From the NCBI GenBank assembly GCA_963796275.1, contig CAWCKY010000006.1, positions 2,848,001-2,912,000 on the forward strand: a stretch of DNA of 64,000 nt. The letters are read 5' to 3'. The notes beneath the pieces are model-generated. The model made no database searches. It was given only the letters and a program-made list of their open reading frames with translations, and was not told where the DNA came from. The translations under genes and the position numbers were made by a program. This document shows positions 240-52,272 of the stretch, one piece after another (the first letter of the stretch is position 1; every line of letters starts with the position of its first letter). The stretch is from an uncultured Acidobacteriota bacterium. GTDB lineage: Bacteria; Acidobacteriota; Blastocatellia; RBC074.

Positions 240-255
240 TGGTATAGCTTTTGCA
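240..255 (+). promoter_or_regulatory. Sigma-54 -24/-12 promoter for 309..758
   Basis: TGGTATAGCTTTTGCA matches TGGYAYR-N4-TTGCW. Confidence 0.65.
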
Positions 256-308
256 TCTTTGTAAGTTTGCATATGGCTTCAAACAGTTTGATTTTTAAGT
301 GAAAAACT

Positions 309-758
309 ATGAGCTGCTTCCCTCCAACTAATATCGTTCGCAACATTTCACACTTGCTGGCCGCCTTCACTAGGAATTGCACTCATTTTCAACGGGAATG
401 GCAGCAGTATATTCCCAGGATTGAGACTGCTGATATCTCAGGCCGCTGGGAGGGTGAGTGGGTGAGCGAGGTAAATAGACACCGGGGCCAGCTCAAATGC
501 ATTGTGATCAGATTAGACGCGCACCATTACCGAGCAAGTTTTCACGCCACTTATTGGAATTTTCTGCGGGCTTGTTACAGCGTGAATCTCTCCGTGAATG
601 AAGTCAACGGGCGGTTCAAGTTACAAGGAGAGGTCGATCTCGGAAAGCTGGCCGGAGGAGTTTATCGATATGAAGGCGAGGTCGCAGACAAGGGATATTT
701 CTCGACTTATAAATGCCGATACGACCACGGCACTTTTCATTTACACCGCCTGGATTGA
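309..758 (+). CDS. Hypothetical protein (beta-rich, 149 aa)
   Basis: ORF with 'ISGRWEGEW' beta-barrel-like start, downstream of a sigma-54-like promoter. Confidence 0.6.
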   Translation: MSCFPPTNIVRNISHLLAAFTRNCTHFQREWQQYIPRIETADISGRWEGEWVSEVNRHRGQLKCIVIRLDAHHYRASFHATYWNFLRACYSVNLSVNEVNGRFKLQGEVDLGKLAGGVYRYEGEVADKGYFSTYKCRYDHGTFHLHRLD

Positions 759-947
759 TACTCACATAGACATTTGGGCCTAATATGCATCCTGCGCTTA
801 CGAGCGAGAGACACCGAAGTGATTCTTACACCAATCGGTACAGCTATATCTTTCAGGGCCGTGCCGATGGTTTAAACAGGGTTTTCCATTCACACGCAGT
901 CTGAAAACGTTGTGGATCAATGTTCCGAGTTACACAATGGAACCTTA

Positions 948-2441
948 TCAGAGCAGTTGGTTGAGAGCCCTGGTTAAGACTTCGTATCCCAGAACCCGCA
1001 CAGGGTCGAACCCCGTGTGTTTTTGGTAGACCTCGCCTTTGGAATCGATAATCACGATGGATGGCAGTGCATCCAGGCCAAATGCGCGAAAGGCCTTCCT
1101 CTCGGGATCGCGCAGCACAGTCAGCTGCAAACCATTCTCTCGGGCGAAAGCTTTGAGACCGGCATCTGAAATGTAGGATTCGTCGCCGACACGCGCACTG
1201 TTAATGCTCACCCAGTAAAAGACGACGCTACGGTTTTCATAAAGATTGGCGATTCGCTGTAACGCTGGTAGAGACTTGTTTGTCATTGGTACCCAGGTCC
1301 CATTGAACACGAGCACGACTACATGCCCGCTGTGGTCAGCCAGGCTGACTCTTTTGCCGTCGACCGACCTGAAGGTCAGCTGATCCGTCTGCCTTGCGAT
1401 TTTCAATGATGCGAAAGTTAATAGTTGTTGTGAGTCGTGCCAGCGTCGGTTAAGTGTGGGCTGTTCATTTTCTTCCGTTTCGTCGGGTTGATCGCTCTTT
1501 TCCAACCTGTGTCGCTTGAGCGTAGGGAGGCGCTGGTCCTCTTTCTCCACCTCAGTCCGCCCTCCGCGGATGAATATTCCCATGCGCTCTTTCAAGGCGA
1601 TGAAGTCGGAGCTGTTGATTTGATATTCCCTCCGCTCGGGGAAACGTACCAGGAGCTTCTGTACTTCCTCAATGCGGTCTTTGCTCATCGGGTGGGTGCG
1701 AAAGGCCTTCCTCAAGGTGCCGGGATCCTTCTTCTCGGATGCCCGCAGTTTCTCGAAGAAGGTAATCAATCCCTGAGGATCGTATCCTGTCTTCCACAGA
1801 TACTGAGCCGCCAGCCGATCAGCTTCCTTTTCTGCGCCGCGCGAGAACTTGAAATAAGAGAGCGGGATCACCAGATTGGCAGTCTGATTAACCAGGAAAC
1901 CGCCCCAGCCGCCGAAGAAGATCAAAGGTATCGCCGCCCAATTGATCAGAACGCCTTTTGTGGCCTGTTCGATGCCGTGTCGCGCGGCGATGTGCGCCAC
2001 CTCATGAGCGATTACGCCTGCGAGTTCAGCCTCGTTATCGACAGACTCGATCAACCCTCGATTGATATAAAGAAAACCTCCAGGCAGCGTGAAGGCGTTG
2101 ATGTCGGATGAATCGATCACCTTAATCGTCACAGGCACTTTGACGTCCGAGTTGATGACGATGTTTTGTGTGACGCGGTTGACGAACTCGAGCAGGATCG
2201 GGTCAGCGACTAAATTCGAGCGCCGATCCATTTCAGCAGCCATTCGCCGGCCGAGCGCTAATTCCTTCTCCAGCGAGTAGAAATTGATCTGGCCATTGTT
2301 GATGTCGCGTTTGCCGATCAGTTGCGGGTTCTCTCTCTTTTTGAGCGGCCTCTGTTTGTTATCCGCCAACACAGGGGCGACGACAAGCCAAAAGGCTAAG
2401 AGCGGTGGCAAAATGTGTCTGGATAGATTCTTAGCGCTCAA
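948..2441 (-). CDS. M48 family (BepA-like) zinc metalloprotease fused to a C-terminal TlpA/redoxin-like domain lacking CxxC
   Basis: Signal peptide; HEVAH, FSRGAEKEAD and THP motifs; C-terminal thioredoxin fold with NGTWVPMT where WCxxC is expected. Confidence 0.85.
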   Translation of the reverse strand: MSAKNLSRHILPPLLAFWLVVAPVLADNKQRPLKKRENPQLIGKRDINNGQINFYSLEKELALGRRMAAEMDRRSNLVADPILLEFVNRVTQNIVINSDVKVPVTIKVIDSSDINAFTLPGGFLYINRGLIESVDNEAELAGVIAHEVAHIAARHGIEQATKGVLINWAAIPLIFFGGWGGFLVNQTANLVIPLSYFKFSRGAEKEADRLAAQYLWKTGYDPQGLITFFEKLRASEKKDPGTLRKAFRTHPMSKDRIEEVQKLLVRFPERREYQINSSDFIALKERMGIFIRGGRTEVEKEDQRLPTLKRHRLEKSDQPDETEENEQPTLNRRWHDSQQLLTFASLKIARQTDQLTFRSVDGKRVSLADHSGHVVVLVFNGTWVPMTNKSLPALQRIANLYENRSVVFYWVSINSARVGDESYISDAGLKAFARENGLQLTVLRDPERKAFRAFGLDALPSIVIIDSKGEVYQKHTGFDPVRVLGYEVLTRALNQLL

Positions 2442-2469
2442 ATCTTACTCTTTTACACGCGCCCATCGC

Positions 2470-3618
2470 TCAGTAACGAAAGATTGCGGCGACAGGAGAG
2501 ATATCGGGCATCTGCTCTCGTGGGACGGCGAAGACCGTTCCACCAGTAGCGAGCGTTCGCAATGCCATCAGATCGAGCAGGTCTTCATCTTCGGGTTGGG
2601 CATCTGTGTGCATAGTGACGGTATTCTGGTCCGCATCAAAACTTCCCCGGCTCTGTGCATTTACCTGAACAAAGAGCGTAGCAATACGACCATGTACGGC
2701 AGCAAGGTCGGCCTCGCTGACGCGATTGGTCGTTTTGCCTGTGCCTGTTAGTTCCCAATATAACTCTTCTGCTTCTTTGCGAGCTCGCCGATAGTGCGAC
2801 TGCACGATCGTCCACGTATTCTTATGTAGTTCTTCGAGCGGCATCTGCTGGGGGTCGCCGTGAATTCCTTCAATGAGCCTGTGTGGATAAGTGTTAACCG
2901 AACGATAGATCGGATGGAGATATTCAACACCGGCCAGGATCAGCGGTGCAGATTCTTCTCTGAGAAGATCGTGCAGACTCGCGTCCACCCATCGGAAGAA
3001 ACGCCGCAACCTGTACTTGTGGACCTCGTCTTCTCCGACCTGATCGTGAAAGACTGCTGTACGTATTCCTCCTGACGGCGGGCTGCTATGAAACTGCCAT
3101 ATTTTCTGTGGCTCTTCTTCACCGAGAGTATCGGCCAAACTCACAGGCATTCCTTCGAGGAAAATCTCGTTGAGGCTATAGCTCGAGCCTTGAAATACCC
3201 TGACCTGATTTTGACATAGCGCCAGAAGATAAAATTGGCCGGCACTCGTGAAATAACGCAGCAATGGTTTCAGGTAAAAGTGGTCAGCGATGACTGCAAG
3301 TTTTGGGAACCTGACCGGCAGGCTGTAATGGCGGAAGAAATCTTCGGTCAGAAACAGTGCCAGACCATCGCTCTGATGCTGCCAGAAGTATTCCTGATCG
3401 AATAATTGCTGCGCCGGTTTGAGAAGCTCTTGCACCTTCGCACTCCACAGGCCGAGGGCGAGAAGGCGCTTCTCAGCTTCACGCAGGAGGTTCTTCAGCC
3501 TGATCGGATCCTGGCGAGTCTCTGCTTCGGCACGATGCGTTGGCAAATAGATCGAGATGCAATAATCATTCTGTTTCCCAACCAATGAGTGCAGTTCTTC
3601 TCTGTTCAATATTGGCAT
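2470..3618 (-). CDS. Bacterial archaeo-eukaryotic release factor family protein (baeRF3/baeRF7-like)
   Basis: CISIYLPTHR..QDPIRLKNLL start, PLILAGVEYLHPIY, AAVHGRIATLFV, and AAIFRY end; GAGG RBS before ATG 3618. Confidence 0.85.
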   Translation of the reverse strand: MPILNREELHSLVGKQNDYCISIYLPTHRAEAETRQDPIRLKNLLREAEKRLLALGLWSAKVQELLKPAQQLFDQEYFWQHQSDGLALFLTEDFFRHYSLPVRFPKLAVIADHFYLKPLLRYFTSAGQFYLLALCQNQVRVFQGSSYSLNEIFLEGMPVSLADTLGEEEPQKIWQFHSSPPSGGIRTAVFHDQVGEDEVHKYRLRRFFRWVDASLHDLLREESAPLILAGVEYLHPIYRSVNTYPHRLIEGIHGDPQQMPLEELHKNTWTIVQSHYRRARKEAEELYWELTGTGKTTNRVSEADLAAVHGRIATLFVQVNAQSRGSFDADQNTVTMHTDAQPEDEDLLDLMALRTLATGGTVFAVPREQMPDISPVAAIFRY

Positions 3619-3968: not shown

Positions 3969-4823
3969 TCACATTGTCTCACTCAACAGTTGCATTACCG
4001 CATCGCGCCACCCCTGCGGGCCGATGCGCTCGGTCAGTCGCGCTCCTGAGAACTGAGCAGTCAGGTTTGGGTCATGCATGCCTGACGGGCGTTTGACGAT
4101 GATCGGCAACTCCACGTTGTTGAACATCGGCTCGTCATTCGGGCTGTCGCCGATGGCGACGGTAGTAATCGGGCCATAGGCGCGAAAGAACATCTCATTG
4201 AGAAACTTGACAGCTAACCCTTTATCGGAATTGCCGTGCAGATGGTAATAACGCCCGCCGACTGAAAATCGCAGGCCGCATTGCCTGATTCTTTGCAGGA
4301 ACCCCTGGATCTCTTCCGGCGCGGAGCTGGAGAAGCGGAATGGCTCGCTATATTCGCGGTCTTTGGCGCGCTGCGCTTCAACAAGCGTCATGGCGCATTC
4401 ATGAGCGATCTCCTTGACCGTTAGATCGCTGAAGCCAACGATGCTGAGGTTGGGAAACTCAACGCGATACCTGCGGAAAAGATCGACAAGCTTCGAGTAT
4501 GGCTCAGCCATCTCGATCACCGAGTAACCGTCGCATGAAGCGCTGCCTTCGATGGCGAAGGGAAAATATCCCTCAGGCACATAGATTGCCCCGCCGTTCT
4601 CGACGATGAATGGATCGTTCGCTTCTGTCGCTTTCCGAATATGCTCGATCTCGGCACGCGTCTTACTCGAACAGAAAACGACTGGAATGCCTTTCTCCTG
4701 TGCAGTCCACAACGCCGGTAGCGACTCGCGAAACTTATAATTCTTTTCATCAAGAAAGGTACCATCCAGATCTGTGTAAATAATCGTCTTGCCATTCTGT
4801 CTCATAAATTTAGTTATCTTCAT
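3969..4823 (-). CDS. mpgP: Glucosyl/mannosyl-3-phosphoglycerate phosphatase (HAD IIB, MpgP/YedP family)
   Basis: TDLDGTFL, CSSKTRAE, PFIVENG and GDSPND motifs; translationally coupled to gpgS. Confidence 0.88.
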   Translation of the reverse strand: MKITKFMRQNGKTIIYTDLDGTFLDEKNYKFRESLPALWTAQEKGIPVVFCSSKTRAEIEHIRKATEANDPFIVENGGAIYVPEGYFPFAIEGSASCDGYSVIEMAEPYSKLVDLFRRYRVEFPNLSIVGFSDLTVKEIAHECAMTLVEAQRAKDREYSEPFRFSSSAPEEIQGFLQRIRQCGLRFSVGGRYYHLHGNSDKGLAVKFLNEMFFRAYGPITTVAIGDSPNDEPMFNNVELPIIVKRPSGMHDPNLTAQFSGARLTERIGPQGWRDAVMQLLSETM

Positions 4824-6034
4824 TACCTTTCATTATCTGCTTCTACTGCTGCTTTCAGTTCCTCGAAGAAATGCGGGAATGCCGAAGCTACACGGTTCCA
4901 ATTGGGAATCAGCGGCACACCGAGAGGGTCTTCAAAGAATTTCTCGCCAGCGATTCTGATTCCGCGTGCGAAAGAGTCCACCGCCGTCTCCTCAGCGTGA
5001 CGATCGAATTCCAATCCGTTGATCCACGCGTCGCCCTGATAGCGATTGATCGTATCTTCGGCCATGCGGACATAGGCTGCCTGCAAGGTTTTAAACCGAC
5101 CTTGCGTTAGCTCGACGCCCTGTGCGGCGAGCGTCCGGAAGAGAGTCTTGCTCACGTCAATGCACATCTTGAGTAATCCCTTTTCGGGATCGTCAGGTGA
5201 AAGGCACTGATGCTTGTGTTCGTAGTTATCGGCGATATCCACCTGACAAACGCGTTTAATCGAGGTGTTGCGGCGCACTTCTGCGAGTACGCCGATCTCC
5301 AACCCCCAGTCGCTCGGGATGCGGTTGGCGCGCGCCAGATCGGATTGCATACAGAACTCGCCGGCCAGCGGATAGCGAAAGCTGTCTAGATAACGCAGGA
5401 ATTCGGTATGGCCGACGATCTCCAGCATCGAACGGATGAGAGGCGCAATCAGCAACCGCGTCGCGCGTCCATACATCCGGTCAGTCACCCGGGCATAAAA
5501 TCCTTTGCTGAACTCGTAATCGGCATTCGGGTTGGCGACCGGATAGATCAGCCTGGCCAGGAGCTCGCGCGAATAGTTGACGATGTCGCAATCGTGCAGG
5601 GCGATCACCTGGCTGCGCTGACAAGCTAAAACGTAGCCATAGGCCATCCAGCATGAGCGGCCCTTCCCATCGCCGCCAACGCGCATTCCGGCGCCTTCGA
5701 GCTTGTCGTACAAGGCGCTGATGCGCGGCCCAGTATTCCATACTATCATCGGGCGCTGCGGCAGCGCCGTGAAGAACTCCTTCGCGTGGTTGAATTCATG
5801 CGTATTAGCGCCTCCCATCGTGACGACCGTCTGCTCCAGATACTTAACCTTTTTCAACTCCTCGATGATGACGGGCAGGGCAGGTCCTTCGACTTCCGAA
5901 TATAGGGCGGGGAGCACCAGCGCTATTGGGCGTTGTCTGGCAAAGCTCAGCAACTCATCTTCGAGCCGTTCCAACTTTGGCTTACCAAGCCGATGAAACG
6001 TTGCTACCAATCCGGTTTGATAAAAGTCGCTCAT
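4823..6034 (-). CDS. gpgS: Glucosyl-3-phosphoglycerate synthase family glycosyltransferase
   Basis: MSDFYQTG start, GKGRSCW, LHDCDI, YPLAGEF, DWGLEIG and YEHKHQ motifs. Confidence 0.85.
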   Translation of the reverse strand: MSDFYQTGLVATFHRLGKPKLERLEDELLSFARQRPIALVLPALYSEVEGPALPVIIEELKKVKYLEQTVVTMGGANTHEFNHAKEFFTALPQRPMIVWNTGPRISALYDKLEGAGMRVGGDGKGRSCWMAYGYVLACQRSQVIALHDCDIVNYSRELLARLIYPVANPNADYEFSKGFYARVTDRMYGRATRLLIAPLIRSMLEIVGHTEFLRYLDSFRYPLAGEFCMQSDLARANRIPSDWGLEIGVLAEVRRNTSIKRVCQVDIADNYEHKHQCLSPDDPEKGLLKMCIDVSKTLFRTLAAQGVELTQGRFKTLQAAYVRMAEDTINRYQGDAWINGLEFDRHAEETAVDSFARGIRIAGEKFFEDPLGVPLIPNWNRVASAFPHFFEELKAAVEADNER

Positions 6035-6362: not shown

Positions 6363-7543
6363 TTATGAGCTCTGGGTTTCGTAAGCATCGTGCTCCATCT
6401 TCAACTCGACGCGCTTCATTAACAGGCGCTTGATGTGATCGCGCGAAATGAAGCCGACCAGCCGGCTGTTGGACGTCACTGCCAACGGATCTTCTTGACT
6501 ATGGCCCATTAACCCTAACGCTTCGGTGATAGGTGTTTCGGGAGTAACCGTTTGAAGCCGATCTATTTGCTTCATCACATCGTAGACCACTGTGTATGGC
6601 CATCGCCTACGCGCGATCTTTCTAACTTCCTGAACCGTGATCAATCCAGTCAACTCGCTGCCATGCATAATCAGAAAGCAATCCCCCTCGCCGCGCATTA
6701 AGTGATCTTCAACGAAAGTTTGAAGGTTGGTATTGCCATCAATGACGGGGCAGTCACTCTCCATCACGTCCTTGGCGCACACACCGCGTAACCGCTCGCT
6801 AACCTCAGTTTGTGAGACACTCGCCAGAGCTACCTGGAACAGAAACCAACCGATAAACGCCATCCACAACCCGCCGAAGACGGCCCCCTTAAAGATGGCG
6901 AGGATGCCGATAACGATGAAGGAGGTGGCAAAGAACGTCCCGGCGAATGACGCTAACCAGGTCGCGCGTGTTTCATCGCCTGTCCCCCACCAGATAATTG
7001 CACGCAACACGCGCCCGCCATCCATCGGAAAGCCGGTACCAGGTTGAAAATTGCCAGCCCGATATTGATGTAGCCAAGCCAGACGATCATTGCTTGCAAC
7101 AGCGTCACCGGTTCCGCAAGCAGCATCCAGCCGCTCAGCCATGCCAGCGCCAGACAGATAAACCCAATTGCAGCGCTGGTGAATGGGCCGGCGATTCCTA
7201 TCCAGAATTCAGATTTCGCGTCGCTGGCCTCGTTTTCTATTTGCGCCACGCCGCCGAGGGCAAACAACATGATCGCCCTCACAGACAGTCCGAGCCTCTT
7301 GGCTACTACCGCGTGTGAAAGCTCATGAGTCAGAATCGATGCGAAAAGGAGAGCGCAGGTGATCATCGCTGCCCCCCAGACCATACCTGTACTCCAGGCT
7401 GGATTGACGGTTCGAAAATGGCTTGCCAGCAAAATGACGATCAGTGCTGCGGTGATCAACCAACTGATATGCAAATTGATTTCAATGCCGGAAATGCCCC
7501 CTAGCTTGAATAATGTTCGTATCTTCACCTCTTTACCTGTCAT
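6363..7543 (-). pseudogene. Site-2 protease (M50) with CBS domains, frameshifted near 7033 (possibly a sequencing indel)
   Basis: HELSH in one frame and FPMDGGR plus CBS pair in the other; adding one G to CCGGC restores [12 protein letters not shown]. Confidence 0.85.
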
Positions 7544-7623
7544 TTACAAAACTTTGCTGCCTGTTGCTGCGAGTCGACCACTATTTATCCACCTGATCGC
7601 GGCATCAGTCTCTTTTCGTTACA

Positions 7624-8472
7624 TCAAGCCTTTTCTCGCAACAATCGCATAACTGCTTCCGCCCATCCTGCCGGGCCGATGGCTTCTGTCAGCCGCGCCT
7701 GTGAGAATAGGGTGACGAGTCCCGGTTGATGGGCGCCGGATGGCCGCTTGATAATGATCGGCGCCGCAACCTTGCTGAGCATCGGCGCGTCGTTCTGGCT
7801 GTCGCCGATGCCGACGGTTGTAACCTTGCCATAAGCTCTTTGGTACAAGTGCGTGAGAATTTCAACGGCGTGTCCTTTGTCGTAGTTTCCATGCAAATGG
7901 TGATAGCGGCTGCCGACAGAGAATTGGCGGCCGGATTGCTTGATCCTTTCCTGGAATACATCTATCTTCTCCGGCGTAATATTGGAGAATCGGAAAGGCT
8001 CAGTGTATGCGCGGGCTTTGGCGCGTCTGGCTTCATCGAGCGTCATGCCGCATTCGAGCGCGAGTTCATTGACCGTCAGATCGCTGAAGCCAACGATATC
8101 GAGATTGATGGAACCGGCGCGCATCAAGCGGAAAAGGTTTACCATCCTAGAGTACGACTCGCCCAGCTCGATCACATCGTAACCGTCGCGCGACATGCTG
8201 TCTTCGATGGTGAAGGGGAAATAGCCCTCAGGCACGAGGATCGCCCCGCCGTTTTCGACAATAAACGGATCGGTCACTTCCGTCGCCTTCCTGAGGTGCT
8301 CGATCTCGGCGCGCGTCTTGCTCGAACAGAAGACCACAGGAATGCCTCTCTCTTGCGCAGCCCGCAACGCCGGCAGAGACTCCCGAAACGAATAGCCCTC
8401 TTCATCGAGAAATGTTCCGTCCAGATCGGTGTAAATAATCGTCTTTCTATGTGGTCTCATAAACTCAGTCAT
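7624..8472 (-). CDS. mpgP: Second MpgP/YedP-family HAD phosphatase (paralog of 3969..4823)
   Basis: Same HAD motifs; long stretches identical to the first copy. Confidence 0.88.
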   Translation of the reverse strand: MTEFMRPHRKTIIYTDLDGTFLDEEGYSFRESLPALRAAQERGIPVVFCSSKTRAEIEHLRKATEVTDPFIVENGGAILVPEGYFPFTIEDSMSRDGYDVIELGESYSRMVNLFRLMRAGSINLDIVGFSDLTVNELALECGMTLDEARRAKARAYTEPFRFSNITPEKIDVFQERIKQSGRQFSVGSRYHHLHGNYDKGHAVEILTHLYQRAYGKVTTVGIGDSQNDAPMLSKVAAPIIIKRPSGAHQPGLVTLFSQARLTEAIGPAGWAEAVMRLLREKA

Positions 8473-8475
8473 CCC

Positions 8476-8524
8476 CCCTCTCCTTATCCGCTTCGACCTA
8501 CGCCTTCAACTCCGCAAAGATTGG
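8476..8524 (-). pseudogene. Remnant of a gpgS 3' end
   Basis: Translates to PIFAELKA*VEADKER versus the gpgS C-terminus HFFEELKAAVEADNER; lies directly upstream of the second mpgP. Confidence 0.6.
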
Positions 8525-8558
8525 CGCTGAGTGTTTCCTGCATCTCTCTCTGATTACT

Positions 8559-8768
8559 TCACGGCTTGTGCCTTTTCTGCCCGTGCGGCGCTACGCTATC
8601 AGAGCAATATGTTTGCAGGATAGTGAACCGATAGTTACACGTTCGGCAGGAATACTCCTCATTCTCCCGCAAGCCAATGGCCAACCAAACTTGTCCGCAC
8701 TGCGGGCAAGTTTGGAAGTGCTGCTTCAAGGCTTCTTCCCACTGCTGGGTGTCTTTTTTTTGATGCAT
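8559..8768 (-). CDS. Small zinc-ribbon protein (69 aa)
   Basis: GGAG RBS, ATG 8768, CPQC...CRTC; first ORF after a sigma-54 promoter. Confidence 0.55.
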   Translation of the reverse strand: MHQKKDTQQWEEALKQHFQTCPQCGQVWLAIGLRENEEYSCRTCNYRFTILQTYCSDSVAPHGQKRHKP

Positions 8769-9038: not shown

Positions 9039-10322
9039 TTAAATGATCGTTCCGTCCGGGATGGTTGCGTTTTTAGGAATCACCACGATGCCATCGCGTA
9101 TGCAGTAGTTTGGACCATCGTGATGTTCGATCCCGGCCTCGTTGAGGATGTGGACGTTCGCACCGATGCGCGCGTTCTTGTCGATAATGGCGTGGCGGAT
9201 AACAGCCCCCTCGCCGATGGCGATTCGTGGGGCGCCGCGCCTTCGGTCTTCCTCCAACTCTTCGATCGTCTGGTAGTAATCGGCGCCCATCACCAGCGAG
9301 TCGCTGATTCGGGCATTGTCTTCAATCCGCGTCCGGATGCCGATGACGGAATGCTCGATCACGGCGCGATTGAGGATGCTTCCGTCGCAGATGATCGAGT
9401 TGCGGACGACGCAGTCGGCCAGCTTGGTGCCAGGCAGAAAGCGTGAGTGCGTATAGATCGGGGCTTCGGCATCGAAGAGATTGAAGCGGGGCACGATGTC
9501 GGCCAGCGCCAGATTGGCCTGGAAGAATGTCTTGATCGTTCCGATGTCCTCCCAATAATCGTCGAACAGGAACCCCTGCATTCGATATCGCCCGATCGCC
9601 GCGGGAATGACCTGATGGCCGAAATCAACGTGGTCGGTATTTTCGAGGACCTGCCGCAACGCCTCATAGCGAAAGACGTAAACCCCCATCGACGCAAGAT
9701 ACGGGCGCTCGGCGGCGGCCTCCGGGCTCAGTCCGAAGCGAGTAGTATCGACGCGCATTGGCGGTAGCGCTTCCCCCTTGGGCTTCTCGCTGAATTCGAC
9801 AATACGGTCCCGCTCATCAGTCTTTAGCAGGCCAAAGCTCGAAGCGCTCTGCTCGTCGGTCGGGATGACGGAGACCGTCACGTCAGAGTCGGTCTGTTGG
9901 TGATGGTGCAGCAGCGCGCGGTAGTCCATGCGGTAGAGGTGGTCGCCCGACAGGATCAGGACGTTGTCCGGGTTCAGTTCCCGGATGTGAACCAGCACCT
10001 GGCGTACGGCATCGGCTGTGCCCTGAAACCATTCCTTGTTGCCGGGCGTCTGCTCTGCGGCCAGCACATCAACGAAGCCATCTGAGAAGGCGCTGAAACG
10101 GTAAGTCCGCGCCAGGTGGTGATTGAGTGATGCCGAATTGAACTGCGTGAGGACGTATATCTGCGCCAGGCTCGAATTGATGCAGTTGGAGACCGTAATA
10201 TCGATCAGCCTGTATTTGCCGCCGAGCGGCACTGCGGGTTTCGAACGGTAGAGCGTTAGCGGATACAACCGCTGCCCCTGTCCTCCGCCCAGAATCAAAG
10301 CCAGTGTGTTCATGTCTTTCAT
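9039..10322 (-). CDS. glgC: Glucose-1-phosphate adenylyltransferase
   Basis: [49 protein letters not shown] motifs and left-handed beta-helix C-terminus. Confidence 0.95.
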
Positions 10323-36681: not shown

Positions 36682-36696
36682 AAGAAGGGAAGACAA

Positions 36697-39202: not shown

Positions 39203-39206
39203 GTGC

Positions 39207-39997: not shown

Positions 39998-40035
39998 TGT
40001 GGCTTTTTGGGACTTCACCCTGACTGAATGCAACA
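39998..40035. promoter_or_regulatory. Tandem UAS sites
   Basis: TGTGGCTTTTTGGGACT-N4-CCTGACTGAATGCAACA, about 85 bp upstream of the -24 box. Confidence 0.65.
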
Positions 40036-40297: not shown

Positions 40298-40313
40298 TGG
40301 CACGCCCATTGCA
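40298..40313 (+). promoter_or_regulatory. Sigma-54 promoter for the USP gene
   Basis: TGGCACGCCCATTGCA (consensus match); UAS-like pair at 40164-40202. Confidence 0.8.
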
Positions 40314-40388
40314 CTTTCAATAGGTGTTGGACGAATTGTTTCTATTTCAACACGGCTAAAAATAGGAAATCGAATGATGGATTGTAGA

Positions 40389-44759: not shown

Positions 44760-46262
44760 ATGCGTACAGGCACCAAGCTGATTCTGTTTCTGACGGTGGC
44801 CGTAGGTATTGTGATGACGCTCGGCGGATACTACATACTGCGTCAGCGCGAGGCGATTCTGGAAACTGCAATGCGGAATGAGCTGCGGGCACATGCTGCT
44901 ACATTGAAGATCGCGCTCGAGGACGCATATCGCAACGGACGCACTGGCGATGTGCAGCGACTGATCAACCGCTTGAGTGAGGACCCGAAGGTATACAGCG
45001 TGACACTCTTCGATGAGACCGGGCGATCGGTGATGTCATCCAATCCGCTGGCGGCTGATGAAGTTCGCAATCCTCCACAGGCTCAGCAGGTAATAGCAAC
45101 CAGTCAAACTGCAGAGATCGATTCGAATCAGTATCTGGTTTCGTTGATTGTTCCGATCCGCGTCGCCGAATCGCGGCGCGGGGCTTTTGAAATTACCCAG
45201 CCGAGGTCATTCATCAGAGCAGATTTCGCGCGCGCGCGGCGGGACATTGCCTTTGTCACGCTCGCGCTCTTTGCTGCCATTGTTCTGGTCGTGCTGGCTG
45301 TCATGCGCCGGAGTCTGTTGAGGCCGATCAACGAACTGCTGGGCGGCGCAGTCGCGATCGGGCATGGTGATCTTGAGTACCGTGTCATAGTGCCTGAGAG
45401 TGGTGGCGAACTGGCGCAGCTAGCACGAGAGTTCAATCGCATGGCTGACAGCCTGGAAGAGCAGATGCGCGCCGCATCGCGCGAGGCCGAAGGGCGGCTG
45501 GCGCTGGAACGCGAATTGCGACACAAAGAGCGGCTCGCATCGATCGGACGTTTGGCGGCAGGCATCGCGCACGAGATGGGAGCGCCGTTGAATGTCATCA
45601 AGGGCCGCGTCGAGATATTGCAGCAGCGGCCTGATCTGCCGCAGGAGAGGCGAGATCGCAACCTGGATATCATCAACGCGCAAGCCGACGGAATCGCCCG
45701 GATAGTGCGCCAATTGCTGACTCTCGCGCGGCCATTCAATCTGAGGCGGGAAGTCCTGGACCCGGCGCAATTGATCTCAGAAGTGCGTGAGCTGATCGAG
45801 CCGGAGGCGACCAAAGCCGGCCTTCGAATCGAAGTCGCGGCCGACGAACAGGCACGGATTGATGGTAACCGGGATTTGTTGCATCAAGTATTACTGAACA
45901 TTTGCCTTAATGGACTGCAGGCGATGGAAACAGGCGGGAGGCTGCGAATAGCGTTGCTGAATGAAGAGGTTATCAGGAATGATTGCCGCTTCGTGGCCTT
46001 GGGAATTTCAGACACCGGGCCAGGTATCTCTGCCGACAATCTGAATCACATCTTCGATCCATTCTTTACGACGAAAGATGTCGGGCAGGGATCGGGCCTC
46101 GGATTGGCCGTTTCGCATCGCATTGTTGAGGAACACGGCGGGTGGATTGAAGTCGGCAACCAACCAACGGGTGGTGCGGTCTTCACAATTTATCTGCCGA
46201 AAGTAGGCATCGACCAAGAATCTTCCGAGGAGTCATTCATGTCGTCTCGGACGGCGCCCTGA
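44760..46262 (+). CDS. NtrB/ZraS-type membrane sensor histidine kinase (HAMP)
   Basis: Two TM segments, [37 protein letters not shown]. Confidence 0.93.
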
Positions 46263-46362: not shown

Positions 46363-47733
46363 ATGACCGCGCGGTTGTTGATCGCTGAAGACAACGCAGA
46401 TATGCGTGAGTTTCTGCAGGAAGTCCTCGAGGACGCGGGCTACGACACGGTGCCGGCCAATGATGGGCGCGAGGCCCTTGCCTTGATCGAGCGAGCCGGC
46501 CAGATGATCGATCTCGTCATCACCGATGTCCAGATGCCTGGTGTGAAGGGGGATGAGCTGCTGGCTATTACGCGGGCGCGCCGCCCCGAAACGCCAGTCA
46601 TCGTCATTACCGCGTTCGGTTCGGTCGAGCAGGCGGTGGAGATGGTGAAGAGAGGAGCCTTTCAATATCTGACAAAACCTTTCCCCTCAGGCGATCTTCT
46701 GCGCCTGATTGAAGAAGCGCTCGAACTCAGCGCTCCGCACCGCGAACAGGCGCGGCTACGGCGTGAATCGGCCGTAGCTCCGGCGAAGATCATCGGTGCG
46801 TCGCAGCCGATGCGACAATTGTTCGATCTGATATCGGTAGCGGCGCGGAATACCAGCACGGTCCTGATCACCGGCGAGTCGGGCACAGGCAAGGAGCTGG
46901 TGGGCAGGGCTATTCATGAGATGTCGGAGCGCAAGGGCGCATTCGTGCCGGTCAACTGTGCGGCGATCCCGGCCGATTTGATCGAGTCAGAGCTGTTCGG
47001 GCACACGGGCGGCGCCTTTACCGGAGCGAAGCAGGCGCGGTCTGGGCTCTTTGAGGCGGCTGACGGCGGTACGATCTTTCTTGATGAGATTGGCGAATTG
47101 CCGATGGCAATGCAGCCGAAGATCCTGCGCGCGTTGCAGGATGGCGCTGTGCGCCGCGTCGGCGAGAACCATGAGCGCAGGATCGATGTACGCGTGATCG
47201 CCGCGACCAACCGCAATCTGGAGCGAGACGTCAAAGATGGGCGTTTTCGTGAAGACCTTTATTGGCGGCTCAATGTCATTCTGATCAATGTGCCGCCGCT
47301 GCGAGAGCGCGCCTTCGATATCCCGCTGCTCATTGAACATTTCATCGCGAAGGCCTGCCAGAGCGCGGGTAAGCCCGTGCTCGGGGTTTCACCTGAAGCC
47401 CTTGCGTTATTGACGGCTTATCCATGGCCGGGCAATGTGCGTGAATTGGAAAATGCGATCGAACGTGCTGTTGCTTTCGCTCACGGGGCGACGGTGACGC
47501 CTGAAGATCTGCCCAAACGAGTTCGCGACAGTGGTGGTGTGTCGGCGATTATCGCTCGTTCCAGTGAACAGAACCTCTCGCTGCGCGATCTTGAACGAGA
47601 ATATATCTTCGAAATGCTGCGGCGCACGGGCGGAAATAAAAAGCGGGCGGCGGAAATGTTGGGGCTGGATCGCAAGACGCTTTATCGGAAGCTGGAAGAG
47701 TACCGCGCAGATGGCTATTGGCTGGAGTTGTAG
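46363..47733 (+). CDS. NtrC-family sigma-54-dependent response regulator (REC-AAA+-HTH)
   Basis: [45 protein letters not shown]. Confidence 0.95.
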
Positions 47734-47938: not shown

Positions 47939-48298
47939 GTGGCTTATCTGCCCATTGAAAACTATGGCATTATCGGCGATATGCACTCAGCTGCGCTTGT
48001 GGGCATAAATGCCTCAATCGACTGGTTATGCTTTCCACGATTCGATTCACCCAGCGTATTTGCTGCAATTCTGGACGATGAAAAGGGAGACCGGTTTGAC
48101 GTCTCGCCTGCCATCGAAGGAGTCAAGTCCAAACAGGTTTACTGGCCTGACACGAATGTGCTGGTGACGCGCTTTCTCTCTCCCGCAGGAATCGCTGAAG
48201 TGATTGACTATATGCCTGTAGGTGAACAAGCGTTCACACACTTGTCGTTGATCAGCGCTGCATTCACCCTGGACAGGGCGCTCGGAGCCAGCGATTGA
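47939..48298 (+). pseudogene. GH15 glucoamylase/trehalase with a large in-frame internal deletion
   Basis: N-terminus [24 protein letters not shown] joined directly to the C-terminus [12 protein letters not shown]. Confidence 0.85.
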
Positions 48299-48321
48299 AG
48301 AACTGCGCAAGGAAATGAGAT

Positions 48322-49239
48322 ATGATTCTTCAACAATTCGAGTTGGAAAGCATAAGATCGATTTTCAATTATCCCATTCTCAGGGCTGGTAATACTCAGA
48401 TCACGCTCTGGACGGTCGCCCAGTTTGTGATTCTACTGGTGCTGCTCTTCTTCTTAGCCAAGAAAGTCAGAGATCTTCTGGTCAAACGCATGCTGCCTAG
48501 AAGCAAACTGGATATCGGCGCGCAGCAGGCAGTAGCAGCGGTCACGCGTTATCTGGTGCTTTTTATCGGGCTGTTGGTGATCCTGCAAACAGTGGGCATT
48601 GACTTAACAACGCTGAACGTGATCGCGGGGGCGGTCGGAATCGGCGTCGGATTCGGTCTACAGAACATCGCAAGCAACTTCATCAGCGGCTTGATTATAC
48701 TCTTCGAGCGGCCCATCAAGATCGGCGACCGCATTGAAATCGGTGACATCGAAGGCGATGTGATCGAGATCGGCGCTCGAAGCACCACTGTTCTGACCAA
48801 CGACAACATAACGATCATCGTCCCTAATTCCAAGTTTATCACCGAGAACGTTGTCAATTGGGAGCACCGTGATTCAAAGATCAGGTTCAAAATTCCAATT
48901 GGTGTGGCTTATGGCAGCGATGCCAGGCTGGTAGAAAAAATTCTGCTCATGGTTGCTGAAGAAAACCCTGATGTCATGGATATCCCGCCTCCGGTTGTCC
49001 GCTTTCTTGAATTCGGTGAAAGCAGTCTGCTCTTTGAGTTGCGCGCCTGGAGCTCCACTCTTCTGCACCGCAAAGGGGTTCTGATCAACGCGTTAAACTT
49101 CGCGATCTACGATAAATTTAAGGAACACGGCATTGAAATACCATTCCCACAACGTGATTTGCACATCCGCAGCGGTGCGCTGGAATTGAAGGGAGCAATC
49201 CGGTCAACAAAAGGAGGGAGCGCAGATGAAGCTGCCTGA
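48322..49239 (+). CDS. MscS-family mechanosensitive channel
   Basis: GIGVGFGLQNIASNFISG, ERPIKIGD, EIPFPQRD. Confidence 0.93.
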   Translation: MILQQFELESIRSIFNYPILRAGNTQITLWTVAQFVILLVLLFFLAKKVRDLLVKRMLPRSKLDIGAQQAVAAVTRYLVLFIGLLVILQTVGIDLTTLNVIAGAVGIGVGFGLQNIASNFISGLIILFERPIKIGDRIEIGDIEGDVIEIGARSTTVLTNDNITIIVPNSKFITENVVNWEHRDSKIRFKIPIGVAYGSDARLVEKILLMVAEENPDVMDIPPPVVRFLEFGESSLLFELRAWSSTLLHRKGVLINALNFAIYDKFKEHGIEIPFPQRDLHIRSGALELKGAIRSTKGGSADEAA

Positions 49240-50692
49240 AAATTTCAAGCGGGTTAATAAGACGAAACCCTATCATATTGTAATCTTCCTTTCTGCGGCG
49301 CTGGTGCTGCTGATCGGCGGATTACTGCGTGGAGTAAGCCAGGATAAAAAGTCGATGCGATTTGAAGTCTCGACTCTTGAATCTTTACGGAAAGAGGTCG
49401 AGGGCGTGCAGACCGTGCTCAAAAAGAGCGAACTGGAGTCGATTGAACAAACAATCGACTCTGTCATCCAAAACGCGCTCCCAGCAGTCGTCGCTATCAG
49501 ATCAGTTCAGGGATTACAACCTCCGCGCACAATCGCTGTATACAATGACTATCAGCTGTCACAGCCGGTTAGCAGGTCAACGGCCTTTGCCTCAGTCGCC
49601 TCCGGCCTAATAATCGACGGTGCAGGCCATATTCTGACATCAGATAAAGTCGCAGACGCCGGAGATCGATTCAATATTCTATTTGATGACGGCACACAAC
49701 AGCTTGCTGACCTCGTAGCCTTCGATCAGGCTGAACATCTGGCGGTACTGAAACTGAGTGAATCGAACGTGCCCATAAGATTGGCGGAATTTGAGGAGAA
49801 ACCTTTACTGCAATCAGGCACCTGGTTGGTCAGACTTGCGCGCTCACCGACGGGCCAGCGGAGCGTATCGCTGGATATGATTTCGGTCGTCAGACGCGAT
49901 CCGTCGGGGCTCGAGACATTCCTTCTGGATTCCTCGATTGTTGCGGAACAGGATGGCTGCCCGGCGCTCAACCTCGAAGGCAAGATCATAGGAATCAATT
50001 TCCGGCTACCTCAAGATAACGGCAGTCAAGGATCAGTGATTCCAATAGGCCATGCGTTGAATGTGGCGAACAGACTCTTAACTGAGAAGAAACCGCAGCC
50101 TCAGTCCTGGATCGGTCTAGAACTCCAGGAACTGAGTGAAGACCTGCGTGAATACTTTGCGGTCGAACAGGGCGCCCTCATTTCGCTGGTCAAATCCGAT
50201 AGCCCTGCGTTGCGAGCCGGACTGCGCGAGATGGACATGGTAGTTCGCTTCAACGATCAACCGGTTACGACAGCGAAACAATTGATCGAAATGATCAATC
50301 AGACCTCGCCCGGCACACGCTTGAAACTGAATGTCCGGCGTAACGCGAAAGAACGCCTGTTTGAAGTTGAAACGCGCCCATACCAGAGTGTAACCGATCA
50401 ATCAACTCAGAAGGCGGATGATAGCGAGCAAATGCTGGTGCTGGAACTGGATCGTGATGTTTTGACAGCGGGTGTAAAGATCAAGGCCGTGCGGCCTGCC
50501 GCATTGGCAGCACGATTGGGATTACAAGCCGATGACGTCATCGTCACAGTCGATCGCCGGCTACTCGACAGCCAGGCAGATTTTCAACGCGTGCAGCAGA
50601 ACAGGACGGCAAGCGATATGCAGCTCTGGCAGATCAGGCGAGGGGAGCAGATGTTCTTCCTGGCAGTGCGAGAGAGGGTGGTGGTGCTGTGA
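49226..50692 (+). CDS. HtrA/DegP-like trypsin-PDZ-PDZ protein lacking catalytic residues
   Basis: ASGLIIDGAGHILTSDKV (no His), EQDGCPALN (no GNSGG), two PDZ-like domains. Confidence 0.8.
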   Translation: MKLPENFKRVNKTKPYHIVIFLSAALVLLIGGLLRGVSQDKKSMRFEVSTLESLRKEVEGVQTVLKKSELESIEQTIDSVIQNALPAVVAIRSVQGLQPPRTIAVYNDYQLSQPVSRSTAFASVASGLIIDGAGHILTSDKVADAGDRFNILFDDGTQQLADLVAFDQAEHLAVLKLSESNVPIRLAEFEEKPLLQSGTWLVRLARSPTGQRSVSLDMISVVRRDPSGLETFLLDSSIVAEQDGCPALNLEGKIIGINFRLPQDNGSQGSVIPIGHALNVANRLLTEKKPQPQSWIGLELQELSEDLREYFAVEQGALISLVKSDSPALRAGLREMDMVVRFNDQPVTTAKQLIEMINQTSPGTRLKLNVRRNAKERLFEVETRPYQSVTDQSTQKADDSEQMLVLELDRDVLTAGVKIKAVRPAALAARLGLQADDVIVTVDRRLLDSQADFQRVQQNRTASDMQLWQIRRGEQMFFLAVRERVVVL

Positions 50693-51897
50693 GCAACGTC
50701 CTGTTGGTCGGCCTAATCCTGGTTCTGGCGCTCGCTGGCGGGCATCTGGTCAAGTTCATTCGAGTGCCGGAAGTCGTCGGATATTTCCTTGTCGGTCTGT
50801 TTCTCGGCCCGTCGTTTTCGCAAGTACTGAGCGGCGAAACCGTGACCACTCTCGAATTCTTCAGCGAGATCGCGTTGGGCCTGATCCTGTTCAGCATCGG
50901 AGCAGTCTTCGAGTTTGAAAATCTGCAGAGAGTTGGCAAACGCACACTCCTGCTCATCCTCTACTTGATGGCCGGAACCGTATCGGCTGTCTTCATAACC
51001 CTGCTTGCTCTCAATGGAAGCTGGCAGGTGGCGCTGCTGCTGGGCGTCATCGCGGTCGAGGTTTCGCCGATTGCGACAGTTCTGGTGATGCGGGAAGCAA
51101 ACTCAAGAGGACAGCTGACCGATGCGGTGAACAACGTACTGGCGCTCAATAACGTCGGTTGTATCATCGTCTTCGGCGTGGCGACATTCGTTGTGAAGTT
51201 GTTCGACAGCACTGAAACCACGCCTTTGCTGGCGTCCTTGTTGGGCAGGGAATTCCTATTACTGTTTTGGAACATCATCGGTTCGGTCGCCCTGGGCATC
51301 GTGCTGGGTTATGTACTGGCGATGTGGGGAAGACACGTAGAAGAGCATAGTGAGATTCTGATCCTGGTTTTGGGAATGATCCTGGTTGCCGTCGGGACTT
51401 CGCACTGGCTTGGTCTCTCGTCATTGATTGCAACGATGACATTGGGCGCGGTGCTGATCAATCTGGAAAAGGAGAGCCGGCATCTCTTCGACGTGCTGGG
51501 CAAGACCGACCCGCCGCTTTACGCGATCTTCTTCGTACTGGCGGGGGCTCATCTGCAGCTTTCATCGCTGCTGCTGATTGGCGTGAGCGGCGTGGGCTAC
51601 ACGCTGTCGCGCATTGCAGGCAAGATGGCCGGAGCCTGGTATGGGGCGAAAAAACTGGGCTATCCGGAAGTCATCAGCAAATATCTGGGTGTCACGCTCG
51701 TAGCGCACGCCGGCGTAGCAATCGGATTGGCGCTGCAGGTGCGCAGCATCTTTCCGAAGTATTCGGAAGTCATCGCTACTGTCATCCTCGGATCGGTTCT
51801 TATCAACGAGGTATTGGGTCCGGTGCTGACGAAGTTTGCTTTGACGAAGGCGGGCGAGACGCGGGTTGAACACATCGGCGCATTCGAAGAGATCTGA
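50689..51897 (+). CDS. Cation:proton antiporter (KefB-like membrane domain)
   Basis: PEVVGYFLVG, ALGLILFSIG, FFVLAGA, HAGVAIGL, NEVLGP. Confidence 0.88.
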   Translation: MSNVLLVGLILVLALAGGHLVKFIRVPEVVGYFLVGLFLGPSFSQVLSGETVTTLEFFSEIALGLILFSIGAVFEFENLQRVGKRTLLLILYLMAGTVSAVFITLLALNGSWQVALLLGVIAVEVSPIATVLVMREANSRGQLTDAVNNVLALNNVGCIIVFGVATFVVKLFDSTETTPLLASLLGREFLLLFWNIIGSVALGIVLGYVLAMWGRHVEEHSEILILVLGMILVAVGTSHWLGLSSLIATMTLGAVLINLEKESRHLFDVLGKTDPPLYAIFFVLAGAHLQLSSLLLIGVSGVGYTLSRIAGKMAGAWYGAKKLGYPEVISKYLGVTLVAHAGVAIGLALQVRSIFPKYSEVIATVILGSVLINEVLGPVLTKFALTKAGETRVEHIGAFEEI

Positions 51898-52124
51898 AGC
51901 TCATATGAAAAGTCATGCAACCGACGCGCAGCTGGCATTGGATTTGATCCTTGCGATTCTGGCGCTCTGGCTTATCCCACATTTTTGGCCGCTAATCGTG
52001 CGATGATGCTCACAGAACATATTACAAATAGGCCTGCGATGCAGTAAGGGGCACTTGAGCTTGTATCATCATAATTATCGCTGTAGGGACAGGCAAAAGC
52101 GACTAACATCCAGGTGTGGTGATA

Positions 52125-52162
52125 TGGGATGATATGGGACACAATTAGGGTATTCAGCCACA
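52125..52162. promoter_or_regulatory. Tandem UAS sites
   Basis: TGGGATGATATGGGACA-N4-TAGGGTATTCAGCCACA. Confidence 0.55.
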
Positions 52163-52256
52163 CCAACATCCTCGTACTTGAGGGAGAACTTTTACAAGGG
52201 ATAAACAATGTTCGTTTAGGTAGTACCAAAATTGAGGTTCGGAGAGCCATACTGAG

Positions 52257-52272
52257 TGGCACATTCATTGCT
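52257..52272 (+). promoter_or_regulatory. Sigma-54 promoter
   Basis: TGGCACATTCATTGCT. Confidence 0.75.

Follow-up and report, generated by a model that had tools for sequence, protein, structure and literature searches.

How an uncultured member of the Acidobacteriota controls its survival genes is the question raised by a 52-kb block of sugar-storage, osmoprotection and ribosome-hibernation genes, in which nearly all promoters pair a sigma-54 site with one type of activator site. The Acidobacteriota are abundant and their gene regulation is little understood. The block lies in a window of 64,000 nucleotides (the whole stretch analysed) from the genome GCA_963796275.1, which is 94.7% complete and 5.2% contaminated. 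An earlier note, made from the letters alone, had listed its cargo, and the Pfam and NCBIfam assignments agree with that list: TreY, TreZ, TreS-Mak, GlgE, GlgB, a GpgS-like enzyme, two MpgP, two MscS, two USP genes, two PRC barrels and two cation/proton antiporters, to which GlgC, GH57, MreB/PBP2, HtrA, an M48 peptidase and a baeRF3 protein can be added. Trehalose and glycogen genes, MscS, USPs, PRC barrels, antiporters and a hibernation factor typify SigB, RpoS and EcfG regulons, and by this class list the cargo is of the general-stress type. It is probable, as far as the DNA can tell, that the block is a stress-survival unit wired as one sigma-54 regulon under a local kinase-bEBP pair.

The genome scan proposed in the earlier note supports the wiring. 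The box consensus was the textbook form, YGGCACR-N4-TTGC, with GG and G(-13) fixed, and upstream regions were defined from our own gene calls. With at most one mismatch, boxes occur in 12 of the 26 upstream regions of the interval 200-52,400 versus 100 of 5,428 outside, which is an enrichment of about 25-fold (Fisher p 2e-14, the interval having been picked post hoc). On the wrong strand the counts are 2/26 inside and 36/5,428 outside, and with the spacer shifted by 1 in either direction they are 0/26 inside and 23-26/5,428 outside, so that about a quarter of the 100 outside matches are expected by chance. Among 2,285 sliding 52-kb windows, the interval holds the genome maximum of 12 boxes, the best non-overlapping window having 4, and rpoN, on which the whole idea depends, is present as a single copy at C3:1419712 (one PF04552 match, E 4.5e-58). 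The chance share among the outside matches could suggest that the boxes are chance matches altogether, but the enrichment on the right strand with the right spacing, the top rank of the interval, and the success of a second motif in predicting sites elsewhere, in other genomes, leave this a practically negligible probability; the chance reading was rejected on the box enrichment with its controls and on the held-out enhancer matches given below.

All 17 box sites of the earlier list are present within about one base, its minus-strand coordinates being the low end of the box, but the one at 21229 had been put on the plus strand, which is the wrong strand and has 3 mismatches there, while the good box, at 21244, reads on the minus strand. 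A box at 15793 (-) was absent from that list. Beyond 53 kb the weak match at 53650 (2 mismatches) is confirmed, a 1-mismatch box without enhancer also lies at 54131 (-), and the sigma-70-type matches there are not above chance (6 observed vs 7.4 expected), two of them being good (55817 and 58725). The boxes at 240 (2 mismatches), 19517 and 53650 have no enhancer.

The enhancer, which the earlier note had missed, is a 17-bp palindrome, TGTnnCA-N3-TGnnACA, located 49-139 nt upstream of 15 boxes; it was spotted by eye and also recovered by Gibbs sampling with a width of 19. There are twelve enhancer loci for the 15 promoters, as three loci, including the regulator operon's own, are common to divergent pairs. 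Leave-one-out scores are at least 12.8 bits at 11 of the 17 listed sites, and outside the interval 0.4% of 3,218 regions reach 10. Non-coding boxes have the enhancer in 14 of 16 cases in the interval (10 being training sites) versus 6 of 194 outside, and all these 6 lie within duplicated satellites, where boxes and enhancers have been preserved although the flanks diverged by 20%. With a matrix trained on this window alone, the enhancer was found at 38 of 88 held-out box-bearing promoters near the same bEBP family in other genomes (33 distinct ones once near-copies are removed, in related genomes that are not independent samples); the controls gave 1/88 downstream and 0-3/88 with column-permuted matrices. 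In the window's own activator clade, 13 of 19 held-out promoters have it. Helical phasing of the enhancer is absent in this genome and weak in relatives, and an IHF consensus is matched with 1-3 mismatches between enhancer and promoter, a figure that stands without a null for comparison.

A tyrosine integrase gene lies 3 kb left of the window. The unit 948..3618 (-) begins with the baeRF3 gene (2470-3618; PF18845 E 3e-39) for a putative Balon-like ribosome hibernation factor, which matches 8rd8_B over residues 15-382 (E 4e-19), nearly full length, as well as NF052287 (E 5e-51; 174 bits, under the cut-off of 330). Downstream follows an M48 peptidase-thioredoxin gene (948-2372), and the promoter has its box at 3716-3730 and its enhancer at 3842-3860 (leave-one-out 12.8 bits). 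Genes for a gpgS-like glucosyl-3-phosphoglycerate synthase (NF040724 E 2.5e-109, under cut-off) and an mpgP-type phosphatase (TIGR01486, over cut-off) occupy 3969..6034 (-), with box 6197-6211 and enhancer 6291-6309 (19.8 bits). A near-duplicate of this promoter (box 8840-8854, enhancer 8932-8950, -) adjoins the unit 6363..8768 (-), which consists of a small Zn-ribbon-like ORF (8559-8768), a second mpgP (7624-8472) and an M50 peptidase-CBS gene that is frameshift-split near 7050. The genes mscS and glgC (9039..11353, -) have an orphan enhancer-like site at 11605-11623. Divergent boxes at 12849-12863 (-) and 13068-13082 (+) with a common enhancer at 12949-12967 are followed by genes for a CPA2 cation/proton antiporter and a tandem USP (13179..15462, +) and by the remnant of a second bEBP gene (15457..15738, -), of which only the C-terminal lid and the HTH are left; a start corresponding to that of full-length relatives lies in a different frame from the remnant, and full-length orthologues with the same promoter exist at the related loci L003, L027 and L052. 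The next divergent boxes, 15779-15793 (-) and 16031-16045 (+), have their common enhancer at 15887-15905, an arrangement that also adjoins mreB in L011 and L052, and second-copy mreB and PBP2 genes follow (16317..19386, +), the housekeeping copies being on C3. It is doubtful that the sigma-54-like, enhancer-free box 19517-19531 and its twin PRC-barrel gene (19517..20471, +) belong to the regulon. A frameshifted thioredoxin-fold gene (20596-21121, -) is preceded by box 21230-21244 and enhancer 21367-21385 (-), and a unit for a receiver-domain protein, an RsbW-like ATPase, an 85-aa ORF, an APC permease and DUF389-OmpA extends over 21635..26550 (+). No box was found for this unit (21635, +) or for mscS-glgC (11353, -).

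In the right half, enhancer 26863-26881 and box 26946-26960 (+) precede the operon treZ - GH57/DUF3536 - glgE - treS/maltokinase - glgB (27024..38691, +), with TIGR02402, TIGR02456/02457 and NF003811 over cut-off and a PF11896 match. Within 38672..41351, a PRC-barrel gene and a 176-aa gene (box 39899-39913, enhancer 39997-40015, -) are divergent from a USP gene (enhancer 40163-40181, box 40298-40312, +). The treY gene (41418..44393, -; TIGR02401 over cut-off) with its box at 44511-44525 (-) shares the enhancer 44601-44619 with the regulator operon, whose box is at 44659-44673 (+), and the distance of 48.5 nt from this enhancer to the regulator box recurs at 7 other kinase promoters. The operon encodes a membrane sensor histidine kinase with a single-Cache-like periplasmic part, HAMP, HisKA and HATPase (44760..46262, +), and an NtrC-type bEBP in which receiver Asp, Walker A/B, GAFTGA and Fis-type HTH are intact (46363..47733, +). 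Behind it, tandem enhancers (47728-47746, 47748-47766) and box 47876-47890 (+) precede a truncated GH15 trehalase-like N-terminus, mscS, htrA and a Na+/H+ antiporter gene (47939..51897, +).

Boxes, enhancer, their pairing, specificity and conservation, and the intact regulator motifs are read directly from the sequence, and they are consistent with a circuit in which the kinase would phosphorylate its NtrC-type partner, and the activated bEBP would then bind the palindrome upstream of each -24/-12 promoter and open the sigma-54 polymerase, with feedback through the enhancer at the regulator's own operon. The predicted output is trehalose and alpha-glucan cycling, synthesis of a glucosylglycerate-type solute, MscS channels, antiporters and USPs, as well as the Balon-like factor, proteases, the second MreB/PBP2 and a candidate small RNA. 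It is likely that the local pair (44760-47733) reads the island enhancer, although co-occurrence is the only ground for this assignment, because three bEBP paralogues and about 40 other bEBPs exist (60 PF00158 matches, 44 of them at E<=1e-54). The regulators are thus not one local two-component system, as had been assumed: a second pair, 91% identical and with a near-identical DNA-binding domain, lies at C6:285-288 kb, and a third, at 66%, lies at C6:690 kb. The C2 and C7 satellites have the enhancer with no activator alongside, and the 91%-identical pair and the satellite copies on three contigs are probably parts of the same circuit. The best-scoring models for kinase and bEBP are ZraS/ZraR and AtoS/AtoC, under their cut-offs.

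No RpoS/SigB-type (group 2/3) sigma factor was found in the genome (94.7% complete), the sole PF04539 match and only non-ECF sigma-70 gene found being RpoD, and a good share of the response to general stress or growth arrest therefore probably runs through this circuit. NepR was not found in the genome either, by a search that was positive in the Caulobacter control, but any of the approximately 36 ECF-size sigma factors could be a general-stress sigma. Exactly one PF04539 match was also found in 11 of 18 same-family genomes, and two or more in 11 of 12 other-family genomes.

The bEBP family is present in 73 of 86 same-family genomes and in 3 of 300 genomes of a phylum-wide draw (5 candidates scored per genome), and despite differing gene order, box and enhancer precede orthologues of treY, GH15, mreB, PRC, USP, gpgS and the kinase elsewhere. 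The regulator is family-wide, but the cargo is patchy. In all 5 genomes with related loci that were searched, GlgE was not found. Upstream DNA was available for 25 treY copies of relatives: 2 of these have box and enhancer scoring at least 10, one more has 9.6, and in about ten a sigma-54-like box occurs but the island enhancer does not. In favour of the regulon, no box with at most 2 mismatches precedes, in the scanned regions, treZ in G019 or the gpgS orthologues of G014, G026 and G030, which are without a close bEBP match; against it, G014 has enhancer-like sites at two promoters but no bEBP match at E<=1e-150, only a 46% relative nearby.

The trigger may be an outside ionic or osmotic cue perceived by the Cache-like domain. 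That osmotic stress or water activity alone is the signal is quite possible, though short of even: the desiccation/osmotic trigger of the earlier note had been derived from the cargo only, and the activators have a sister clade (43 members, SH-aLRT 100) in which 26 of 43 loci adjoin carbonic anhydrase, SulP, DUF2490 or DabA and the enhancer is closely similar (19 of 52 boxes score at least 10). As the 66% paralogue precedes a SulP gene and antiporters recur beside the window's clade, the same wiring could serve a sensor of pH, CO2/bicarbonate or cations, the block being a pH/ion-homeostasis island that gained solute and storage genes. This is unlikely, if worth serious thought, as 10 of 16 loci of the window's clade hold trehalose, glucosylglycerate, mreB or baeRF3 cargo, the carbon genes are in none of their 10-kb flanks (one locus has them 27 kb away), and neither MscS nor compatible-solute genes nor Balon-like factors are specific to pH. 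Alternatively, the block could be a regulon for dormancy or low oxygen, comparable to DosR or to the lxa locus of Burkholderia and triggered by energy limitation instead of water stress. Genes for USPs, CBS, PRTase and BON domains and Balon-like factors do recur in related loci; mycobacterial Balon homologues are induced by hypoxia (PMC10901736), and the lxa block comprises 50 genes, among them six for USPs, with 17 copies of its motif (PMC3721108). However, the Cache-like domain of the kinase faces outward and Pfam shows no PAS/GAF domain in it, no respiratory or nitroreductase genes were found under the island enhancer, and the osmolyte and MscS content is strong, which makes such a regulon distinctly unlikely. 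The island's predicted regulator is not of the Fnr/Anr or DosR type but an NtrC-type bEBP, and its motif is a 17-bp palindrome paired with sigma-54 boxes, unlike TGA-N6-TCA.

The promoters could also be real and the block nevertheless a recent, partly decaying mobile island of little function, or mainly the target of another bEBP. The nearby integrase, the patchy cargo in kin, the duplicates on C6, C2 and C7 (78-84% identical, some fragmentary) and five split or truncated genes or gene remnants, which suggest decay or assembly errors, point in this direction. Yet the regulator pair and the large operons are intact, the GC content resembles that of the genome, the copies retain boxes and enhancers, and the enhancer accompanies this bEBP family in many genomes, and it is thus improbable that the block is such an island.

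For the preferred reading, a stress-survival regulon under sigma-54, the mechanism class of two-component bEBP and sigma-54 is textbook, and the scale of the clustered regulon, the general-stress cargo and the apparent lack of the usual sigma factors are unusual. NtrC-family two-component regulons, such as those of Desulfovibrio vulgaris, also have a kinase, a receiver-AAA+-HTH activator with GAFTGA, a palindromic enhancer before -24/-12 promoters and an activator gene adjoining its targets, but they comprise one or a few neighbouring operons, as far as the available text describes, whereas the island has 15 promoters in 52 kb plus satellites and general-stress cargo (PMC4641369). The lxa locus of Burkholderia cenocepacia resembles the island in about 50 co-regulated genes in a block, many USPs, a survival function and one motif at 17 intergenic points and a few outside loci; its motif, TGA-N6-TCA, is Anr/Fnr-like, the accessible part of the source makes no mention of sigma-54 dependence, the regulator is not common to both, and lxa induction was measured while that of the island is predicted (PMC3721108). 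In Chlamydia trachomatis, which has three sigma factors, CtcB/CtcC likewise links one two-component bEBP to a sigma-54 programme for a non-replicating, environment-facing form, but this programme acts on genes for membrane and type III secretion proteins instead of solute or storage genes, and an island is not described in the text available (PMC7482065). During sporulation of Myxococcus xanthus, treY, treS, glgC and rpoN increase jointly and spore formation requires several EBPs, but direct sigma-54 promoters, a common enhancer at trehalose genes and clustering, as predicted for the island, are not shown in the part available (PMC2875238). SigB, RpoS and EcfG regulons have like cargo, but the island has sigma-54 promoters that need an activator, and the corresponding sigma factor or NepR is among the genes not found. 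Background on SigB, RpoS and EcfG-NepR-PhyR is given in PMC3162934.

Of the general-stress programme proposed in the earlier note, the clustered regulon and the stress cargo are supported, with the enhancer as a newly seen tie to the local pair, while the single system, the trigger and the lineage-wide block are not supported. A wider reading is tentative and, as a whole, somewhat improbable: one Blastocatellia family without RpoS/SigB-type sigma may have rebuilt its general-stress or resting-state response on sigma-54, with a sensor-bEBP family that split into stress-survival and inorganic-carbon/pH clades whose enhancers are nearly identical, and a portable enhancer-plus-box promoter that recruited trehalose, glucosylglycerate, glycogen, MscS, hibernation and cell-wall-remodelling genes, as a second bEBP would have done for another stress cluster at C1:1.03-1.04 Mb. 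If so, sigma-54 could replace the usual general-stress switch, which would be a further architecture beside SigB, RpoS and EcfG and a handle on acidobacterial dormancy, and the enhancer would mark stress genes across the 87-genome family. A literature search found no description of sigma-54 or general-stress regulons in Acidobacteriota. As a sensor, an activator, an enhancer consensus and 15 predicted start sites are now named, tests are feasible in a laboratory host, and the organism itself need not be cultured.

At the right end, box 52257-52271 (+) with a weaker enhancer (52145-52163, leave-one-out 7.8 bits) precedes a candidate structured small RNA (52283..52385, +) with a long hairpin and a C-rich strand (fold z -2.3). 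It has no Rfam match, and none of 86 same-family genomes gave a clear match; box and stem are retained in the paralogue at C6:288405-288541.

The stretch between about 200 and 52,400 (the island) is the part of this genome richest in predicted sigma-54 promoters: it holds 12 -24/-12 boxes, and the best non-overlapping window among 2,285 sliding 52-kb windows holds 4. A simple codon model yielded 7,026 gene calls, whose upstream regions were scored against a textbook consensus; boxes with at most one mismatch stand in 12 of 26 upstream regions inside the island versus 100 of 5,428 outside. Counts were low on the opposite strand (2/26 inside, 36/5,428 outside) and with a spacer one base shorter or longer (0/26 inside, 23-26/5,428 outside). 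A matrix trained on strict matches outside the island, from 56 seeds, gained no extra columns and proved too noisy, and the fixed consensus with its strand and spacer controls was used instead. The enrichment over the genomic background and the rpoN gene that a sigma-54 regulon presupposes, as proposed by an earlier note made from the sequence alone, are thus both found, rpoN in one copy. All box sites listed there are present, the one placed at 21229 on the plus strand being in fact a box on the minus strand at 21244, and a box at 15793(-) had been missed. The note's statement that boxes precede almost every transcription unit has exceptions: the scan showed none ahead of mscS-glgC, nor ahead of the unit that begins at 21635.

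Upstream of the boxes lies a palindrome, TGTnnCA-N3-TGnnACA, that is the likely enhancer. It was first spotted by eye and recovered by a Gibbs sampler at width 19, but width 17 missed it and the random-region null was run at width 17 only, which is why the sampler alone is no evidence and the held-out test described below has to serve as such. With a matrix built from 10 window sites, leave-one-out scores were 12.8 bits or higher for 11 of the earlier note's 17 sites, and only 0.4% of 3,218 regions outside the island reach 10 bits. The promoter at 52257 scored 7.8 bits, the scan upstream of the sites at 240, 19517, 21228(+) and 53650 found no enhancer, and the enhancer of the 44659 promoter lies nearer to its box than the range searched. 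Genome-wide, an enhancer accompanies 14 of the 16 non-coding boxes in the island versus 6 of 194 non-coding boxes outside, and all six outside cases lie in duplicated satellites (contig C6 at 276 and 285 kb, C2 at 385 kb, C7 at 130-131 kb). Including the regulator's own promoter, where the spacing is 48.5 nt, there are 12 enhancer loci for 15 promoters. Helical phasing of the enhancer was not used as evidence: in relatives p was 0.007 with the period at the limit of its range, in the host genome there was none, and a low-score control gave a similar R. Coding DNA holds 13 copies of one identical 19-base enhancer-like string (e.g. C3:262496, C3:395141, C4:242575, C6:307338), probably inside a repeated insertion element.

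As the training sites are the same window promoters, an independent test must come from other genomes. For this, 80 loci were fetched by the activator protein alone, and of their 88 box-bearing upstream regions 38 (33 distinct) scored at least 10 bits, versus 1/88 when the downstream side of the box was scored and 0-3/88 for 40 column-permuted matrices. Three control stretches from contigs C2 and C112 of one relative, G032 (107 kb), held one box and no enhancer. Among 66 kinase promoters examined, 15 have box and enhancer, and in 7 of these 15 the spacing is 48-50 nt. Box and enhancer counts from one scan of the relatives' stretches are lower bounds, since overlong ORF calls masked some promoters, and exact-pattern counts per genome discriminated weakly, with many matches in coding DNA, and served only for finding loci.

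The presumed regulators are encoded in the island itself. In the kinase (44760-46262, +), a single-Cache-like outer domain (Atlas lead 0.96) is combined with HAMP, HisKA and HATPase domains, and its NtrC-type partner (46363-47733, +) has a receiver, an AAA+ domain with GAFTGA and a Fis-type HTH. Two paralogues of the activator in the genome, at 91% and 66%, are each accompanied by their kinase. The regulator's closest relatives come from records titled Blastocatellia or Acidobacteriota, some from records titled Heliomicrobium, and one genome so titled is listed in the host's family. The activator family is present in 73 of 86 genomes of that bacterial family versus 3 of 300 in a phylum-wide sample, in which five candidates were scored per genome. 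The remnant of a further activator is divergent from mreB, and three relatives have a full-length counterpart with the same promoter. This HTH-only remnant (15457-15738) was considered as a repressor, and an in-frame ATG exists, but the start that corresponds to the one in relatives lies in another frame, and the HTH has substitutions; it is read as a pseudogene, which might nevertheless repress.

In a tree of 82 proteins, made by a quick method with SH-aLRT support only and without four short loci dropped by a length filter, the window activator falls within an 18-row clade (SH-aLRT 95), in which cargo like that of the window occurs at 10 of 16 loci. A separate 43-row clade (SH-aLRT 100) has carbonic anhydrase, SulP, DUF2490 or DabA at 26 loci and core stress cargo at none. 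The enhancers are similar in both clades, scoring at least 10 at 13 of 19 boxes in the window clade and 19 of 52 in the other. The sister-clade loci (L004-L009, L041-L042, L050-L072 and others), which adjoin genes of carbonic anhydrase, SulP, DUF2490 and DabA/B type, have an enhancer variant of their own and may form a sigma-54 regulon concerned with inorganic carbon or pH.

It is very likely, judged from sequence, that one activator family serves the whole block through the palindrome: the family would act there and thereby switch the whole block on. That the block so controlled is a stress-survival regulon is probable. The cargo named in the earlier note was confirmed, and several genomes have the activator amid blocks with overlapping cargo in differing order (e.g. 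G031:C36, G032:C18, G033:C248, G035:C15, G387:C4, G391:C13), the G035:C15 block having the enhancer at 7 of 10 boxes. Conservation in related genomes extends to the activator family and to the enhancer at held-out loci, but the cargo is patchy: of 30 relatives, 1 has a close treZ and 4 have gpgS, and glgE was found in none of five genomes with related loci. Among 25 treY genes of relatives with upstream DNA, box and enhancer stand at two, a third is borderline, and about ten have a sigma-54-like box alone. The window therefore seems to be an unusually large version of the stress island. The gene at 2470-3618 is Balon-like; Balon is a ribosome hibernation factor that often occurs in stress operons (PMC10901736). 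A second mreB-PBP2 pair (16317-19386) is under predicted sigma-54 and enhancer control, likewise in loci L011, L014 and L052, and might change the shape of resting cells. Five genes or remnants in the island are split or truncated, and for a 311-aa protein all Atlas leads were under 0.9.

Among possible triggers, osmotic or water stress is the best match to the cargo. A pH or bicarbonate signal would agree with the sister clade, and a shortage of energy or oxygen with the USP and Balon content. The component mechanisms are textbook (PMC4641369; PMC3162934). In Burkholderia, the lxa survival regulon is likewise clustered and has a repeated motif, but its type of regulator differs (PMC3721108); in Chlamydia a sigma-54 programme is under one two-component activator, as proposed for the island (PMC7482065), and in Myxococcus spores trehalose genes and rpoN rise jointly (PMC2875238). 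The literature covered, main texts with few subscription papers, gave no description of such a system or of sigma-54 control of such cargo in Acidobacteriota; predictions for the activator family may exist in the supplements of PMC3162934 and PMC4641369 and in curated regulon databases.

The host genome (9.46 Mb, 7 contigs, window on C6; completeness 94.7%, contamination 5.2%) is rich in sigma-54 activators, with PF00158 at E<=1e-54 in 44 of 60 matches. Among its sigma factors, region 3 is confined to RpoD, the remaining 36 region-2 matches are mostly ECF-sized, and no NepR was found in the genome. A single region-3 match is likewise seen in 11 of 18 same-family genomes, more than one in 5, and none in 2 that are incomplete; outside the family, 11 of 12 genomes reach two or more. 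The earlier inference that general stress runs through sigma-54 fits the single region-3 sigma factor and the negative search for NepR, but a general-stress ECF factor may still exist. At 21635-22727, a receiver protein, an RsbW-like ATPase and an ORF of 85 aa look like components of a partner-switching system, yet the genome search found no SigB-type sigma factor.

A second stress-type cluster (L238, C1:1,030,000-1,044,000) is the site of the genome's third, split treY and contains a ClpB-like fragment, DUF5670, holin-X, DUF3618/DUF883 and its own hybrid kinase and sigma-54 activator; its six weaker sigma-54-like boxes all lack the island enhancer. With a separate activator in this cluster and sigma-54-like boxes without the enhancer at about ten treY copies of relatives, stress genes here seem to rely on sigma-54 through more than one activator. 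Non-island treY genes of relatives (L199-L209) share a conserved sigma-54-like box variant, three with a common upstream stretch, pointing to another activator. Dispersed sigma-54 boxes that share another motif upstream (of the TCCCA-AA-CG-ACA type, in many cases preceded by TGGGA; C4:1101431, C4:1103862, C4:796981, C4:822313, C7:402519, C6:786630, C4:1277693, C6:1908923), where at least one gene start resembles a MacB-type permease, are probably the regulon of yet another activator.

No gene follows the 52257 box, but a hairpin-rich stretch of about 100 nt (52283-52385) that is kept with the box in a paralogous locus (C6:288405-288541), where stem changes, judged by eye, keep pairing; it is a candidate structured small RNA. 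Rfam gave no match within the window, 86 relatives hold no clear copy, and a two-sequence profile found only the two known copies, which leaves membership in a five-copy RNA family unsupported. No tRNA was found near the island ends. On the left flank, 3 kb from the window, is a tyrosine integrase (L185:15025-16344); a vanadium chloroperoxidase-like protein (56128-57675) lies just beyond the island, and about 7 kb right of the window is a group II intron reverse transcriptase/maturase with an HNH domain (L187:7433-9148).
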